From assembly GCA_035994985.1 (NCBI GenBank), contig DASYKZ010000007.1, forward strand, positions 15,601-79,600: a stretch of 64,000 nucleotides of DNA, in the 5' to 3' direction. Every line of letters starts with the position of its first letter. Position 1 is the stretch's first letter. Positions 4,379 to 12,620 of this stretch are shown here, one piece after another. The translations under genes and the position numbers were made by a program. The stretch is from Minisyncoccota bacterium. Its GTDB lineage: Bacteria > Patescibacteriota > Minisyncoccia > Phycocordibacterales > UBA9973. The notes under the pieces were generated by a model, which had not been told where the DNA came from, did not search any database, and saw nothing but the letters and a program-made list of their open reading frames with translations.

Positions 4379-7300
4379 TTAGTGACTTATCACAACAGGT
4401 GTAACCGAGTACACAGTCACTGTGCCGTTAACACTGTCAGTTATATCCGCCCGAATATATTTTGAACTTAAGGATATTCCTGATGTATCCCATACATATT
4501 CATCAGTCGGGTCATCTTCATTTACAGTGGTAATTGAAGTATGGTTGCTATTTGATGGATTAGTATCAGGGTCATAATAGAGGGCTATAGAGGCGTTTTC
4601 TTCCGGATCCTCGTCTATCCACTTGATTGTGTAACTTGCATCGGCGTTGGCGGAAACTGCCGCAGTAGGAGCCGTAAATGTGAAGGTTGGCGATGCATTG
4701 CCTGCGGTAAGCTCAAATGTTCCGCCCCACTCAGTTGCGGTTGAATCTTTACCGGCAAAGTCTCGTGCTATTACTTTAATTTTATACCCCGTACCGAGAA
4801 GGGTTCCCGGAATATCCCACGCATAGGTACGGGTACCGGAGAGAAGGCCTTCCTCGGTGCCTATCAGATACCATGTTGAATCAGCCGGTTCGTAATAATA
4901 GAATGAGGTGCTTTGGACTATGCCGGGAGAGGTTCCGATATCATCTCCAACCGTATACTGAATCAGTTCTCTTTCTTTATTCTCCATTACCTTGTCTGAT
5001 TCTCCAACTATAGAAACAGAGGTAACAGTCGGATTCGCGGTATCAGGTTTAAGGTTCGTATAGATATTTACTCCGGTAACTGCGGTATTGTAGTTGATGT
5101 ATTTGTTAGTGTATGTCTCATAGCGGAAATTTGATACGCGAGCATATGAAGATCCCCATGGCACATTACTTTGCGTGTATGTGCCATCGTCCGCATCTGA
5201 AACAGTATTAGTGCCTGTTGTCACTCCGAGAACATCAACACCCTTAACTGCTCCATCAACCGCTTTTACAGTGCCGGACGTAGTACCGGCAATATAATTG
5301 TTCGCATTAGAACTTACTTTCACCTGCGCGGGAGTAGAGAAGAAATAAATGCTGCCGCCGGAAGACGAGGTGCCTAACGTTGCTTCATAGGTAGTACCTT
5401 CTACTAAACTTCCAACGGTAACATTGGTTCCCGGATACGACACATTTGCCGCAGACCACGTGCTCGTTCCTAAAACCCGGAGCATGATGACATACTTGTT
5501 TAGGTTTGGGTCGCTCTTGGCTGGCCAGCGCCATGTTATTGCCGGAGTTCCACCGGAGGAAACGCTCTTGTATGCAACATAATACATTGGGAGCGCCGGT
5601 CTGCTTGCGGGGTCCGCAGCAAAAGTCAGAATTTCCGCATACCGTGAGTCAGGATGAATAACTTCATTCTCTCCTTCGGCAAATACTTTAAATGATACTG
5701 CTCCCAGAAAACTTCTTGATCCTGATATGCCAAGCGTAACATTGAGAGTCGAATTGGCGTTAACAACGATGCTGTTGGCCGCAAGGTCCACAGTCGCATA
5801 ACCATAATCGTCAGTAATGATATGTAATTTCCCACTATCAATTGCAGTATTGCCATTATTTACCAAAACAATTCTTATATTTGTCGTACCGCCGGTCGTA
5901 AGCGTTGTGAGCGGCACAAGGTCAGTAATTGCGAGCTGACCTGAATCAGTAGAAACCGAAAGTGCTTTAACGACTTTCGCTGTGGTGTATAGGTCGCTGT
6001 CAAAACTGCCGTTACCTGCCTGCTCGTCTTCAAAGTACTCTACTGTATCAAGCTGGTATGTTGGCACTTCTCCTGAAGCTTTTATGGCGTGATATGCCAA
6101 TGCCGTATTAAGTGTATTGTTTTCCCACGTACCGTCTGAAAGCTGGGCAGTAGTGAGGGCAGCGACTGCTGGATTGAGTGTATCGTCAATTGCAATCGGT
6201 CCCATTGTACGATGCCTCCATAAAAGTAATGCTTCAACTACTTCAGCTGTGGTTGCAAAAGGGCTTGTTCCAAAGTTTGAGATACTCCAACCATCATCAA
6301 ATCGCTTTGTATTAATTAAATAGTGAAGCGCTAAAGACTGGGTTTTGTTTATTGATGGACCTGGGTCTTCATACTCTGCAGTAGAAAGAGCTTGGATAGC
6401 TTGAGTAGTAGTTATCGGATCGGCTTTATAGCTTGAATTGAAAATAAAACCTCCTGTATCTTCATCAAGTCCTCTCACGAGTGCTTCAACTGTTGATCCA
6501 GTATCTTCTGCCGCTACTTCCAAAATTTTAATCTGTTTAGCAAGATAATCATTGTTTTCTGTAACATAAGAAGATATCCATGCAATACCATTGTCAACTT
6601 CTGTACCTGTTACATTTTGCGACTGCAGAGCATCCAGCACCGCAGAAGTAGTGACAAACTGGGTGGAACCACTGCCCCATGATCCGTCAGCATTTTGCTC
6701 ACCCAGAAGATAATTAATCGCGTCCTCGCTTACTGATGCCGCATCCGCGAAAGCGCTTGAAGGAGATACCCAACTGACAATTTCACTAAAAGTATTTTTG
6801 ATTGCATTTTTCACTTTTTGGAAAATAGTTTCTTCAACTTTTTCTGCAGGATCTACGGTCTCCATATCTAGCACCTTCACTTTTAGTTCTTCCGGCTGCT
6901 CTTCAAAAGCGATAGCCTTTGAAGCATCCAATGTCTGCATGCTATTAACATTTAAAATTTCATTTGCCGGTTCAATACGGCCCTGTGCGTCTAAATCAAG
7001 ATAGTCTTTCGGGAGTTGCCTTATATCAACAAGCTTTTTAGCTATGGAAAATCTTAAGCCCTCATTCATTTCCGCCTTCCTTTCTATTTTGGTAGATGGC
7101 CACATGAATATAGTCCGATCAATGGAAGCTTTATCACTACGATATGCTTTTATTAATTCTTTTATATCCGAAGATATGGCAAGCGTACTCAGGGCTTCAT
7201 CAGAATTAAGCGCGAGAGCTTTGCCGTGTATGTTTACTTTTTGCTCCCAATCTACTCTGGAAATATCGGGTATGATACTTGATCCGGTATCCACCTTGGG

Positions 7301-7450
7301 GATTTGAATTAAAGATTCAAGCGGTACGAACTGCGAGGGTATCATTTGAGCTTTAGCAGAATAAGGAATAACAGAAGGAAATAGAATGCTGGCTAATAAA
7401 AATACTGATAGTATTTTTGAGAATATATTTGTTTTCATATTTTTATGCAT
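4379..7450 (-). CDS. large secreted surface protein: signal peptide, prenyltransferase/squalene-cyclase-like alpha/alpha-toroid repeats, CARDB-like and Fn3/Ig-like beta domains
   Basis: N-terminal signal peptide MHKNMKTNIFSKILSVFLLASILFPSVIPYSAKAQ. Repeated Q/xxDGSW-type units (LGEQNADGSWGSG, RFDDGWSISNFG, QLSDGTWENNTL, QAGNGSFDSDLY). CARDB-like 'NIRIVLVNNGNTAIDSGKLHI'. Fn3-like 'PAITWRWPAKSDPNLNKYVIMLRV…GTTYEATLGT'. No CxEQ thioester motif. Confidence 0.6.
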   Translation of the reverse strand: MHKNMKTNIFSKILSVFLLASILFPSVIPYSAKAQMIPSQFVPLESLIQIPKVDTGSSIIPDISRVDWEQKVNIHGKALALNSDEALSTLAISSDIKELIKAYRSDKASIDRTIFMWPSTKIERKAEMNEGLRFSIAKKLVDIRQLPKDYLDLDAQGRIEPANEILNVNSMQTLDASKAIAFEEQPEELKVKVLDMETVDPAEKVEETIFQKVKNAIKNTFSEIVSWVSPSSAFADAASVSEDAINYLLGEQNADGSWGSGSTQFVTTSAVLDALQSQNVTGTEVDNGIAWISSYVTENNDYLAKQIKILEVAAEDTGSTVEALVRGLDEDTGGFIFNSSYKADPITTTQAIQALSTAEYEDPGPSINKTQSLALHYLINTKRFDDGWSISNFGTSPFATTAEVVEALLLWRHRTMGPIAIDDTLNPAVAALTTAQLSDGTWENNTLNTALAYHAIKASGEVPTYQLDTVEYFEDEQAGNGSFDSDLYTTAKVVKALSVSTDSGQLAITDLVPLTTLTTGGTTNIRIVLVNNGNTAIDSGKLHIITDDYGYATVDLAANSIVVNANSTLNVTLGISGSRSFLGAVSFKVFAEGENEVIHPDSRYAEILTFAADPASRPALPMYYVAYKSVSSGGTPAITWRWPAKSDPNLNKYVIMLRVLGTSTWSAANVSYPGTNVTVGSLVEGTTYEATLGTSSSGGSIYFFSTPAQVKVSSNANNYIAGTTSGTVKAVDGAVKGVDVLGVTTGTNTVSDADDGTYTQSNVPWGSSYARVSNFRYETYTNKYINYNTAVTGVNIYTNLKPDTANPTVTSVSIVGESDKVMENKERELIQYTVGDDIGTSPGIVQSTSFYYYEPADSTWYLIGTEEGLLSGTRTYAWDIPGTLLGTGYKIKVIARDFAGKDSTATEWGGTFELTAGNASPTFTFTAPTAAVSANADASYTIKWIDEDPEENASIALYYDPDTNPSNSNHTSITTVNEDDPTDEYVWDTSGISLSSKYIRADITDSVNGTVTVYSVTPVVISH

Positions 7451-7465
7451 AATTATTATTAATTT

Positions 7466-8257
7466 TTAACTTTTAAAATATTCATTAAAACTATCAGTCC
7501 AAATGCTGCAATTTTTCTTGTTTTCAAGAATCTTGACTATGCCTCCTGTCGGATTAATTTCTGCAACTTGGCAATCGTTCTCATTTTCAGTATCACTATT
7601 CCATCCAAAACGAACGCTTTTTATAGGAACAAGAGTATTTCCTTCAAGCTTATATTGAGTTTTCGTATTTGAATCGGATCCGTGATTTGTTAGATAAATT
7701 CGACTAGCTTTGTACTCAATAGTATCGAATTCGACCGAATTATCTGGATAACCTTCTAGCTTTATATTTTCTAAACTATTTCCTTCCATTCGAAGTATTT
7801 CGAAGGAGGAGTTATTACTTCCCGTAGTTTGCAATTTTACAAACAACTCTTCAAGTCCATCATTAGTAATGTCTTTTTTAGAAAAGTTATATTTTACTTG
7901 AATACCATCTTCAGGGGATATAGATACACCAACTTCTTTAAGCAGTTTAATTTTTGGACTTAATGAGTAAAACCGATATATTTCCGCTTCGTTTTTGTAG
8001 TTTTCTACAACCAAATATAAGATATTGGCACCAATTCTAATTTCTGTTGCATAGTATTCGGTAGCATTTATAAGATAATGATTGTCGTCTTTTTCTTGAA
8101 TAGTAGAATTTGGGAAAATTTCAGAAAGAAACGACGGCTTTTCTTTCTTTTCTTTGCTGAAACTAGAGAATATTACTACAAAAGCTATCACTATGAGAAG
8201 TACTAAAATGCTAATAATATTTCTTCCTGTTATTAAGTTTTTTTTCTTAAATATCAT
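7466..8257 (-). CDS. hypothetical N-terminally membrane-anchored exported protein
   Basis: 263 aa, one N-terminal TM (ISILVLLIVIAFVVIFSSF). Sits between the two large secreted-protein genes with 15-nt and 4-nt gaps. Confidence 0.5.
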   Translation of the reverse strand: MIFKKKNLITGRNIISILVLLIVIAFVVIFSSFSKEKKEKPSFLSEIFPNSTIQEKDDNHYLINATEYYATEIRIGANILYLVVENYKNEAEIYRFYSLSPKIKLLKEVGVSISPEDGIQVKYNFSKKDITNDGLEELFVKLQTTGSNNSSFEILRMEGNSLENIKLEGYPDNSVEFDTIEYKASRIYLTNHGSDSNTKTQYKLEGNTLVPIKSVRFGWNSDTENENDCQVAEINPTGGIVKILENKKNCSIWTDSFNEYFKS

Positions 8258-8261
8258 AGTT

Positions 8262-11200
8262 TTAATATGTTAAGGTTTTACCGTAAGGAATATCTTGGTC
8301 CGAAGCCCAGCAATATTCCAAAGAATCATTGGTCTTCGCACCTATTGCCTTCATTGCTTCTGGAGAAGCTCCCGCAACTTTATTTGTTGTAATATGAGGA
8401 CCATAATCTAATATTCCAGATAAAACTGCTTTTCCTGTTACGGAATTTTTAATCCAAACTTTTTTACCAAAATACCATTTCTGCTCCGTTAACCTTTCTG
8501 GCATATCAAAATCTGTATACTTCCATCTCATATTCACATAGAATTTTTCATGGTCATTAGAATTTGCAGGTTGCGCAAATGCACCATAACGAATAGACAT
8601 ATTCCAGTATTTGCCAGTCTTTGGGTCTATCCATGGATTATTTATATTACTTGATTGATTTCCTAAATCAATCAAAAATTGAGATGTTGTCGGATGACTA
8701 TGTATATCGTCCTGTTTATTGTATTGAATTTGGCCACCATGTCGTGTTTGATAAGTTCCAGAATTTTTATCTATAAAGAGTGGCAAGTGCATTTCTTCTG
8801 CTATTGTACCAGAAGTAGCGGGTAAGCTTCTTCCCTCAAGAGTTGTTGTACATACTACGGAAGTAGGGTTGGAACCTTTTACAATATTTACATCAACTGA
8901 GGAACTAGTACCGTAGCCCGAATGCAAAGTTATGGTCTGTATGGGAAAGGTTGTCGTATTAATATCTCCTTCTTCATCCCAATCGTGAAAAATCGAATCA
9001 TAACTCGCACTCCAGTGAATATCTTCACCTCGTTTTACAGTAGCATTATTCGTAGGTGAATTAATCGTAGCGGTAAGTCCGGGTAATGTATGAGCTCGCC
9101 AGAAATTGGACCAGCCTGTTGGGAATTGTTCTACAGTATATCCACCGTTAAGCCCTTCTCCAATCGCGTAAGTTCCATCGCCGACATCATAGTCTAAGGC
9201 AATATAAAAGAGGCCTTCCCAGTCTCCGTAAGTAATTGAGTCCGAGGGTGTATAAATTATTTTTCCATCGCCAATGGCATCATGAAAAACGGTTTTCATT
9301 CCAGGAGAGATAGATAGAGAATCAATGTCTCCCTCGTTTGCTTCTGTTATTTTCTCGAGAGTTATCCCTGGAAATTCTCCGTCTGCGACTAATTTTAATC
9401 CTTTTACCGTTGCTACTGATTCTATGTCAAAATTATCCTCAAAGATATCTGATTCATCTTGAGATCCTTGAAGCCCGAACAAAGCCATAAATTCTTTTCT
9501 ATTAGAATATATATCATCCCCGAACCTACTAAAATATCGAACCAGCGAAGAAGAGTCAATTCGCAGTCCTTTCCATTCAAACGAATATGGCTGTCCACTG
9601 CTGTATGTTACTTCTACGCCATTAGAAATCGCTGCGCTTGTGGCACGATTAGTAAAATCTCCTCCTGTGATACCGGCAAGTTCACGATGATTTTTCTGTA
9701 AGCGGCCTAAATAATCTACTCCTGTGCGATATAGCTTTTGGCTTTGCATAAATGTACCGCTATCCGTATCTTCATCTGGACGTAGTATGCTTGGGACAAT
9801 ACGGTCAGTATTCAAAGCAACTCCGTCCGTAGTTCCAGTTACAATGCTTTTTTCTAGAGTTTCTGCAAGTTCAGAATCCACTGAATCACCTATGTCTCGA
9901 ATCGGCACGTTAAATTCCATTTTGTATTTATGCACTTTCCCAAGAATATCGCTTGCTGTTCCGGTCGCAACAATATCGCCCCCAACTCTTATTTTAGGCT
10001 TCACATCTGCTAGAGTAAGAGGGACGACATCGTAAATAGTATCAAATCCGTCAATTATAGTCTGGTCTTCCGGGGTTGCCGCTTCATATGTAACTAGAAT
10101 TTCGCGATTAGCCAAGTCTGAAATAAAAGCAGTATAGGTAAGAACTTCTGTACTTGTTGTATCAGTTACCGTAAAGTCTATTGTATGACGCAGAGAAGTT
10201 GGGATATAGTCATAGGTGTTAAGATCAGTCGAAATTTCATACGGCAACGACCCTGGGACAGTTTCAAGCTCCATATTTGCACCAAACTTACGCATCAAGA
10301 CTTCTTGATATGTATAGCTATCATTGTCGGCAGGAGGATTAGCTATAAGCCAGTCCTCAACTTTACCTTGAAAGACCTCAAGAGGTTCCTGTGTTGCATA
10401 ATCTCCATTCAAATAGTCATCAAAAAAATCTTCTATGTCAAAACCGTCACTATTCATTTCATCAACTGCATCTACAACCTGAGAATATAAATAAGAATTG
10501 AAAGTAGGGTCCATGGCTACCCATTGAGACTCGCCACCATCATTTAAATCTGCGCCACGGCTATAGCCGTAAGGCATATATGCTTCAACATATGTATGTT
10601 CCAGCACAAAAAATACAGGTTCGTCATTTTGGGTATACATGATATAAGGTATATCCTCTAAAGAGAGAATTTCAGCAGCTCTTATAGGTGAATCTACTCC
10701 AAGCAGTCCTGTGACTGTGGATATTTCAACTTTCACATCAGCGTGGCGATAGCGGGCAGGAATATCACTATACCTAAGCATGGCAACAAGCAGGGACGAT
10801 TTATCCATGTCATTTCCGGCAAGTTCAACGAGAGTTCCATCTGATCCTTTCTTTGATCCGTAATATGGTATGTATTCAATTTCGTTTCGTAAAAAATTCA
10901 ATATTTTCAAAGGATCATTGGATAATTCGTCCGCTTTGTCTTGAATGGCCTGTGAAAATTTTATCTCATTTCCTTCCGCAATATAGTCATCCGGGTCGTT
11001 GCTGGCATCTGCATATATTTTTTCTCCTCCAAATAGCCAAGAGATTATGCCGCCTTTTTCTTTAGTTTTATCAAAGTCAGAGTTATAGAAAGTTCCATCA
11101 AGTAGGAAATTTTTAACTTTCTGAAGAAAGTTACCATGTTCTTTGGCCTGTTCAAATTTTTTCTCATAATCGTCTGCTGGAGCGGTATTTATCTTACCGT

Positions 11201-11777
11201 CAAAATTCTCCACTTTAAAGGGCTCACGCTCCATAAGCTTCTTTGCTTCATCTGCTTCTCTAGCTTCTTTTGTGTTACCTGTAATGAAATCAAATATTTT
11301 CTTTATTATGCCGTCCTTAGGATTTTCCGTTTGCTGTTTTTCAAAAGCATCTAGACGTTCAATAGCGGTTTCAGGGAGTTTATTATCAATTAAATGTTGC
11401 CTGACTTTAGCAAGTTGCTCTTCTACGGACAAAGAATTATCCTTTTTAAATTTTGTTTTTAAAAGCGGTACCTCTTCAGCAGGCGCAACAGCTTCAGCTG
11501 GTGCTTCAGTTGCTTGCTCTTGCTCTAACGCAGGTGCTGTAGTTTCTTCCTGTGGTGAAGGTAAAGTAGAATCCTCCTCAACTGGTGAATTCGCATTATC
11601 TCCAGAAACTGGCTCTTCCTGCGCCGGAAATTCTGTTTGTGGGACAGCATTCTCTTGAGCAAACACTCGTACGACAGGCATCACTGGAGATAAGACGAAT
11701 GAAAGAAATAACAATATAGCTAGTAATCTTTTAGTAACCTTCAAACAACGTACAAACTTTATATATGAAGTTGGCAT
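8262..11777 (-). CDS. large secreted protein with transglutaminase-like (papain-fold) core domain; nucleophile position appears substituted (Cys→Asp)
   Basis: Signal peptide, acidic Pro/Glu/Ala-rich linker, then 'ELAGNDMDKSSLLVAMLRYSDIPARYRHADV … EHTYVEAYMP … WVAMDPTFN'. This matches the TGase-like G-x-C-x-D…IPAR…H…D pattern except that the Cys is replaced. Confidence 0.6.
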   Translation of the reverse strand: MPTSYIKFVRCLKVTKRLLAILLFLSFVLSPVMPVVRVFAQENAVPQTEFPAQEEPVSGDNANSPVEEDSTLPSPQEETTAPALEQEQATEAPAEAVAPAEEVPLLKTKFKKDNSLSVEEQLAKVRQHLIDNKLPETAIERLDAFEKQQTENPKDGIIKKIFDFITGNTKEAREADEAKKLMEREPFKVENFDGKINTAPADDYEKKFEQAKEHGNFLQKVKNFLLDGTFYNSDFDKTKEKGGIISWLFGGEKIYADASNDPDDYIAEGNEIKFSQAIQDKADELSNDPLKILNFLRNEIEYIPYYGSKKGSDGTLVELAGNDMDKSSLLVAMLRYSDIPARYRHADVKVEISTVTGLLGVDSPIRAAEILSLEDIPYIMYTQNDEPVFFVLEHTYVEAYMPYGYSRGADLNDGGESQWVAMDPTFNSYLYSQVVDAVDEMNSDGFDIEDFFDDYLNGDYATQEPLEVFQGKVEDWLIANPPADNDSYTYQEVLMRKFGANMELETVPGSLPYEISTDLNTYDYIPTSLRHTIDFTVTDTTSTEVLTYTAFISDLANREILVTYEAATPEDQTIIDGFDTIYDVVPLTLADVKPKIRVGGDIVATGTASDILGKVHKYKMEFNVPIRDIGDSVDSELAETLEKSIVTGTTDGVALNTDRIVPSILRPDEDTDSGTFMQSQKLYRTGVDYLGRLQKNHRELAGITGGDFTNRATSAAISNGVEVTYSSGQPYSFEWKGLRIDSSSLVRYFSRFGDDIYSNRKEFMALFGLQGSQDESDIFEDNFDIESVATVKGLKLVADGEFPGITLEKITEANEGDIDSLSISPGMKTVFHDAIGDGKIIYTPSDSITYGDWEGLFYIALDYDVGDGTYAIGEGLNGGYTVEQFPTGWSNFWRAHTLPGLTATINSPTNNATVKRGEDIHWSASYDSIFHDWDEEGDINTTTFPIQTITLHSGYGTSSSVDVNIVKGSNPTSVVCTTTLEGRSLPATSGTIAEEMHLPLFIDKNSGTYQTRHGGQIQYNKQDDIHSHPTTSQFLIDLGNQSSNINNPWIDPKTGKYWNMSIRYGAFAQPANSNDHEKFYVNMRWKYTDFDMPERLTEQKWYFGKKVWIKNSVTGKAVLSGILDYGPHITTNKVAGASPEAMKAIGAKTNDSLEYCWASDQDIPYGKTLTY

Positions 11778-11861: not shown

Positions 11862-12620
11862 TTATCTATATTTCTTGATTTTATCTTGATTAATTTCTAC
11901 GCAATCGGACGTGCTACTATCTTCCGCTGTGGTCCAGCTATCTATGCGCTCTTCTATGCTGTAAATTTTCCATTCTCCCTCTATCCTCTTGAAAGTAAAT
12001 TGATCGATATTATCACCCTCGCCTTTGCATCCGTTTCCCGCAGCACCTAGATATGATTGCCATCCTCGTCTGCCATAGACAAGCATTGTGTTTTCATCTA
12101 AGAGCTTGCGACCTAGCGCTTCTCCCCCAATACCTGCTCCGGTTGGCCACGGAAACTGAAATATCCATGCAGGGGAATTTTTATCAAAAAATGCCAGGCG
12201 AAAAGCTTCATAATGCGGACTATTCCAATCGTCAGATGGTGGTGGAACAACAAAATACGGAGCAAAAAATTCTGTAAATTCGTGCTTGCCTGACCTATCG
12301 AATATTGAGTATTCGGAAGTACTGCCATAATAGAGGGTCAGGTCATAGTATGTGGCGAGGATTACGTCAATTGCGGTATCATCTTTGGGAACAAATTTCT
12401 TAAGCTCTTCCGCTGCTTTTTGATAAGAAACATCTGCCGAATGGTCAACGGCTTGTTTCACTTTAAGATTTATCTTGCCGTCATAGGTCGAGATTTCTTT
12501 CGAGTATAAGTCTTTATACTCTCTGTCTCTTTTATTTAAGAATAAAAAAAGAGATATACCTATTAAAAGAAGTACGAGAAAAAATACTGAGATAATTTTC
12601 TTATTTTTTAAGTGTTGCAT
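11862..12620 (-). CDS. hypothetical membrane-anchored protein
   Basis: 252 aa with a single N-terminal TM (IISVFFLVLLLIGISLFLFL). Confidence 0.5.
   Translation of the reverse strand: MQHLKNKKIISVFFLVLLLIGISLFLFLNKRDREYKDLYSKEISTYDGKINLKVKQAVDHSADVSYQKAAEELKKFVPKDDTAIDVILATYYDLTLYYGSTSEYSIFDRSGKHEFTEFFAPYFVVPPPSDDWNSPHYEAFRLAFFDKNSPAWIFQFPWPTGAGIGGEALGRKLLDENTMLVYGRRGWQSYLGAAGNGCKGEGDNIDQFTFKRIEGEWKIYSIEERIDSWTTAEDSSTSDCVEINQDKIKKYR

Follow-up and report, generated by a model that had tools for sequence, protein, structure and literature searches.

Gene content and distribution of the locus

The locus lies in a 64,000-nucleotide stretch of DNA (the window) and consists of three co-directional genes, A, B and C (Table 1), with gaps of 4 nt between A and B and 15 nt between B and C, exactly as a sequence-only reading had described the open reading frames. 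Sequence comparison indicates that all three are real genes, with homologues at 47–77% identity and in the same gene order in other Patescibacteria. The earlier suspicion that this is a CPR organism was correct: the 100% identical record P0001 is named Candidatus Paceibacterota. Homologues of A (n = 30) are nearly all from Patescibacteria and the family is patchily distributed, with 18 loci among 185,579 species representatives in a scan that used two peptide patterns. The sequence-only reading had proposed co-occurrence across CPR genomes as a check. The three genes are co-conserved: the order A–B–C was found in every related locus examined with enough flank, with C upstream in one locus. A 177-amino-acid gene with a transmembrane (TM) segment starts 6 nt downstream of C with no terminator in the 6-nt gap, and shows no conservation in the other loci compared.

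Table 1 Features of the locus, in window coordinates
Feature	Position	Strand	Extent	Description or basis
252-aa protein	11862–12620	minus	252 aa	Membrane-anchored; directly upstream of A
Gene A	8262–11777	minus	1171 aa	ORF; predicted secreted protein of polymorphic-toxin type
A, signal peptide	11658–11777	minus	residues 1–40	Sec-type; h-region LLAILLFLSFVLSPVMPVV, then VFA/Q; read from sequence
A, transglutaminase-like (papain-fold) core	10506–10958	minus	residues 274–424	Pfam PF01841 Transglut_core, E = 3e-8
A, GEGLNGGYT junction	9135–9161	minus	residues 873–881	Constant scaffold ends, exchangeable cassette begins
Exchangeable cassette	7466–9131	minus		A Ig-like domain, A C-terminal module and gene B; blastn against L032, GC
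A, Ig-like beta-sandwich	8898–9095	minus	residues ~895–960	Weak Big_7 match; AF2 strands 902–951, low confidence
A, window-type module	8265–8897	minus	residues 961–1171	N-terminal subdomain and RlpA-like double-psi beta-barrel
A, RlpA-like double-psi beta-barrel	8265–8609	minus	residues ~1057–1171	Profile against PDB, hhalign
Gene B	7466–8257	minus	263 aa	ORF; N-terminal membrane anchor and extracytoplasmic domain
Gene C	4379–7450	minus	1023 aa	ORF; secreted surface protein, constant partner of A
C, signal peptide			residues 1–34	
C, conserved N-domain			residues 41–200	
C, single (alpha/alpha)6 toroid	5957–6748	minus	residues 235–498	12 helices; QW-like repeats, terpene-cyclase-like
C, five beta-sandwich domains			residues 505–1021	Structure model

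A constant scaffold with a non-canonical transglutaminase site

From its N terminus, A comprises a signal peptide, an acidic linker, a helical region, a non-canonical transglutaminase (TGase) core, a conserved scaffold of ~450 amino acids, the motif GEGLNGGYT, an Ig-like domain and a variable C-terminal module. Signal peptides are conserved in both A and C; in 25 of 27 A homologues (F/Y)AQ comes after a hydrophobic segment at the N terminus, and the JGI gene call P0020, which begins 37 codons later, loses the signal peptide. Transglut_core matches all 27 family members, and the earlier description of A as TGase-like holds for the fold. The position of the catalytic Cys is taken by Asp323 and is Asp in 27/27 members, which means that A cannot be classed as a canonical transglutaminase or protease. 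In the alignment of the family profile with the TGase-like cysteine protease 3isr, ‘aGNDmD’ falls on ‘AGVCRD’; G321-N322-D323-x-D325 does not vary among 27 sequences, and His394 and Asp423 are mostly kept. The invariance of N322, D323 and D325 suggests that the site is still under selection and that ‘inactive’ may be too simple a term. If the ‘inactive transglutaminase’ polymorphic toxins are a guide, the domain probably serves binding or anchoring rather than catalysis. No RHS or YD repeats were detected in A.

Cassette exchange at a conserved junction

The scaffold is conserved across family A and the tails that follow it belong to unrelated classes. The boundary is the GEGLNGGYT motif, in which G873, E874, L876, N877, G878 and G879 are invariant; beyond it, the first ~90 tail residues (the Ig-like region) align in 25/27 members, whatever the tail. 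The closest relative, L032 (63% amino acid identity in the A scaffold and 77% in C), has a different Ig–tail–B cassette: blastn homology to the window runs over 11804–9132 (66%) and 7468–4407 (73%), with none over window positions 7469–9131. The window cassette is also AT-richer than its surroundings (GC 0.359 in the tail and 0.307 in B, compared with 0.399 in the scaffold and 0.432 in C). Tail-only open reading frames that start at the junction occur in L008, L010, L023, L024, L027 and L030, in arrays between A and C; these orphan tails of other genomes begin 0–45 amino acids upstream of the motif. With a single exception they have a B-type gene behind them, and the window-type copies of L008 and L010 both do.

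Among the 27 members of family A, the extreme C terminus is an SLT domain in seven and Amidase_2 in two. Other proteins end in an RNAse_A_bac domain of the CdiA-CT type (P0041, residues 1079–1193 of 1196), a barnase-type Ribonuclease (P0037, residues 1140–1233 of 1247), a PT-TG pre-toxin domain (P0031) or an unclassified HExxH-containing tail with no family match (P0048), and the window-type tail is a further class. Searched alone, the window tail has no Pfam match; it has 363 relatives in the representative library at E ≤ 1e-3, some of them fusions to Amidase_2 or NlpC/P60, and Pfam DPBB_1 covers the barrel region in 4 of the 10 relatives scanned. Its profile matches PDB 4avr (E = 6.7e-7) and hhalign pairs it with Escherichia coli RlpA (93.4% probability, E = 2.5e-7).

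Over its last ~115 residues A shows homology to RlpA-family lytic transglycosylases (Pseudomonas aeruginosa RlpA; PA4485, PDB 4avr) and shares their conserved [D/E]xGP motif, whereas the window tail has Gly for the catalytic Asp, has no SPOR domain and carries an extra N-terminal subdomain (conserved EEMHLPL...QYNKQDD). The catalytic Asp of RlpA is D168 in P. aeruginosa; the E. coli protein, which is inactive, has Ser instead (PMC9712689). In the window the position is Gly1136, with an invariant Glu1140 four residues on; this coupled Glu at +4 is no more than suggestive. With Gly at this position, the tail may bind glycan and not cleave it. As the RlpA-like barrel is the fold of a peptidoglycan lytic transglycosylase family, we infer action on glycan strands of a target wall; the AF2 model of the tail has a pLDDT of 36.

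Gene B varies with the tail

B has a visible N-terminal hydrophobic anchor, in agreement with its earlier description as TM-anchored. Window-type tails are followed by homologues of the window B in L002/L013 (40% identity), L018 and L019 and behind the orphan tails of L008/L010 (E = 3e-15), and in L017 a homologue lies ~2 kb from a window-type tail. Behind SLT tails lies another B family, the members of which are mutually homologous. The amidase tail is followed by yet another TM protein, and RNase and PT-TG tails by proteins with no TM segment, one of which scores above the gathering threshold of Pfam SMI1_KNR4/SUKH-1. B is thus membrane-anchored with cell-wall-targeting tails and cytoplasmic with RNase tails. 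The linkage has exceptions: besides the ~2-kb distance in L017, a window-type orphan tail in L010 (8664–9650) is followed by an unrelated PD40-repeat protein and a barnase-type orphan tail in L027 by a non-SUKH protein. Extra homologues of the window B also occur elsewhere in loci with SLT-class tails.

From this pattern, B is predicted to be the cognate immunity protein for the window-type tail. The 252-amino-acid protein upstream of A is probably an additional (orphan) immunity-type gene; its domain recurs in L003, fused to a domain like the window B downstream of C (38% identity), and in L027, in a 516-amino-acid TM+DKNYY protein just upstream of C (47% identity). B matches no curated family. 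XAC2609/XAC2610 (Xanthomonas T4SS X-Tfe/X-Tfi) is an effector–immunity pair of a peptidoglycan hydrolase and its inhibitor, and the logic is similar, in that a secreted wall-degrading effector neighbours a gene for an envelope-located inhibitor; the export route would be Sec here and is a T4SS there. The NCBIfam model XAC2610_fam reaches E = 0.005–0.023 with three B proteins, far below its 35-bit cut-off, and the B profile found no match in the PDB, so homology between B and XAC2610 is not established.

An exchangeable toxin module on A together with a co-varying B points to a polymorphic toxin–immunity locus. The same data could be read as housekeeping cell-wall remodelling, with A as an autolysin that has interchangeable hydrolase domains for the cell’s own growth or division, B as its regulator or inhibitor in the membrane and C as a structural protein associated with the wall. 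Most tails are indeed peptidoglycan enzymes (SLT, Amidase_2 and RlpA-like double-psi beta-barrels) that could serve the cell’s own wall, RlpA itself being divisome-associated (PMC9712689); the B proteins paired with them are anchored on the wall side of the membrane, and no mobile-element genes adjoin the locus in the window. However, the same scaffold carries CdiA-type RNase A, barnase-type RNase and PT-TG tails, and the proteins encoded behind these are cytoplasmic, one of them being a SUKH immunity protein. Orphan tail–B arrays and the replacement of a cassette between close relatives are typical of conflict systems, and the patchy distribution in the two-pattern scan also speaks against a housekeeping role, which we consider unlikely.

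A toroid surface protein as constant partner

Each of the 11 loci of the genome scan that have enough flank contains C, as do all the other loci examined. The terpene-cyclase-like toroid that had been read from its repeats is confirmed as a 12-helix barrel. Of the earlier description of its beta domains, the beta-sandwich array stands in the structure model and the domain names are less secure: CARDB and fn3 each match 4/18 C homologues, and the window protein reaches only E = 0.01 with fn3. In contrast to the two-domain class II terpene cyclases, and compared with single-domain squalene-hopene-cyclase-like proteins (8zg0, 8paj, 1gsz and 6sbb), the C toroid is a single barrel that is exported by means of a signal peptide and joined to beta-sandwich arrays, with the DxDD motif reduced to DPxTT (DPITT in the window). 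These differences make it almost certain that the toroid is a binding module and not a cyclase. A putative adhesion role for C is plausible.

C is secreted and combines an alpha/alpha toroid with many beta-sandwich domains, as do alpha2-macroglobulin (A2M)/complement thioester proteins; the reported absence of a CxEQ thioester can be put more strongly, as the whole protein has no cysteine. The sequence-only reading had favoured a cell-surface remodelling or adhesion/protection apparatus, and as a whole it is partly supported. An apparatus in which C acts like an A2M/complement protein and A is a transglutaminase that cross-links surface proteins or remodels them would suit the domain combination in C, the A2M and C3 chains listed by Foldseek, the contact of one C homologue with Pfam TED_complement (E = 0.001) and a preprint that proposes transglutaminase tethering of an Ig-repeat surface filament in Actinobacteria (PMC13622651). 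Judged from their sequences, transamidase activity of A and protease trapping by C are both unlikely; the exchangeable A tail and co-varying B point to a toxin–immunity locus instead, and the apparatus is very improbable.

A predicted Sec-dependent toxin–immunity locus

The locus is most probably a Sec-dependent polymorphic toxin–immunity locus that belongs to the ‘inactive transglutaminase’ type, lacks RHS repeats and includes a conserved surface partner with toroid and Ig domains. A would be exported through its signal peptide as a constant scaffold with an exchangeable C-terminal effector; the TGase-fold domain of the scaffold, having lost the catalytic Cys, probably binds or anchors. In the window the two-part effector, with the RlpA-like barrel at its end, would act on the wall of a target cell, possibly a host or a rival. 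B, anchored on the outer face of the producer’s membrane, is predicted to bind and neutralise the tail, thereby sparing the producer’s wall. C would form a secreted multi-domain fibre (non-catalytic toroid, CARDB, Fn3 and Ig) that displays the toxin at the cell surface, docks it there or attaches to the envelope of the target. New effector–immunity cassettes may enter by recombination at GEGLNGGYT from orphan cassettes stored between A and C. A phage or tailocin remnant, comprising a tail-associated lysin with variable lytic domains and a fibre protein, is the least credible alternative: virion-associated lysins also exchange SLT, amidase and DPBB domains, the DPBB profile touches the ‘hub’ protein 8kea, and recombinase/integrase genes adjoin L006, L007 and L032 (the last with a faint terminase match), but relatives of A were not found in 2.9 million IMG/VR viral contigs, the window and most loci have no phage structural genes, and RNase tails with immunity genes do not suit a lysin.

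We found no description of such a kit for CPR bacteria in the literature. The toxin–immunity reading has its closest precedent in Sec-dependent polymorphic toxins with N-terminal inactive transglutaminase domains, for which anchoring by peptide binding was predicted (Zhang, de Souza, Anantharaman, Iyer & Aravind 2012, Biol Direct 7:18; PMC3482391). Common to both are the signal peptide, a catalytically depleted TGase fold with a bacterial Ig-type domain next to it, a highly variable C-terminal toxin and, directly downstream, its immunity gene (toxin and immunity being predictions here). In that class the TGase domain lies directly behind the leader and is followed by RHS repeats, whereas here it lies ~270 residues from the N terminus and is followed by the conserved scaffold. 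In the present family, by contrast with that class, the Cys alone is lost, with an invariant Asp in its place; members are essentially restricted to Patescibacteria and come in all cases with the toroid protein; neither ‘squalene’ nor ‘prenyltransferase’ occurs in PMC3482391.

With CDI (CdiA/CdiI) and Rhs/WapA systems the locus shares a short conserved motif between the constant delivery region and the variable toxin, an adjacent (here predicted) cognate immunity gene and arrays further downstream in which truncated toxin 3′ ends are accompanied by immunity genes. The boundary is marked by VENN in CdiA, by PxxxxDPxGL in Rhs and here by GEGLNGGYT. One tail in the family is itself the Pfam CdiA-CT RNase A domain. 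Unlike those systems, this one has no TpsB/CdiB transporter, filamentous haemagglutinin or YD shell, or T6SS or T7SS genes; the organism that carries it is a monoderm-like CPR bacterium, and its orphan arrays are bracketed by the conserved third gene, C.

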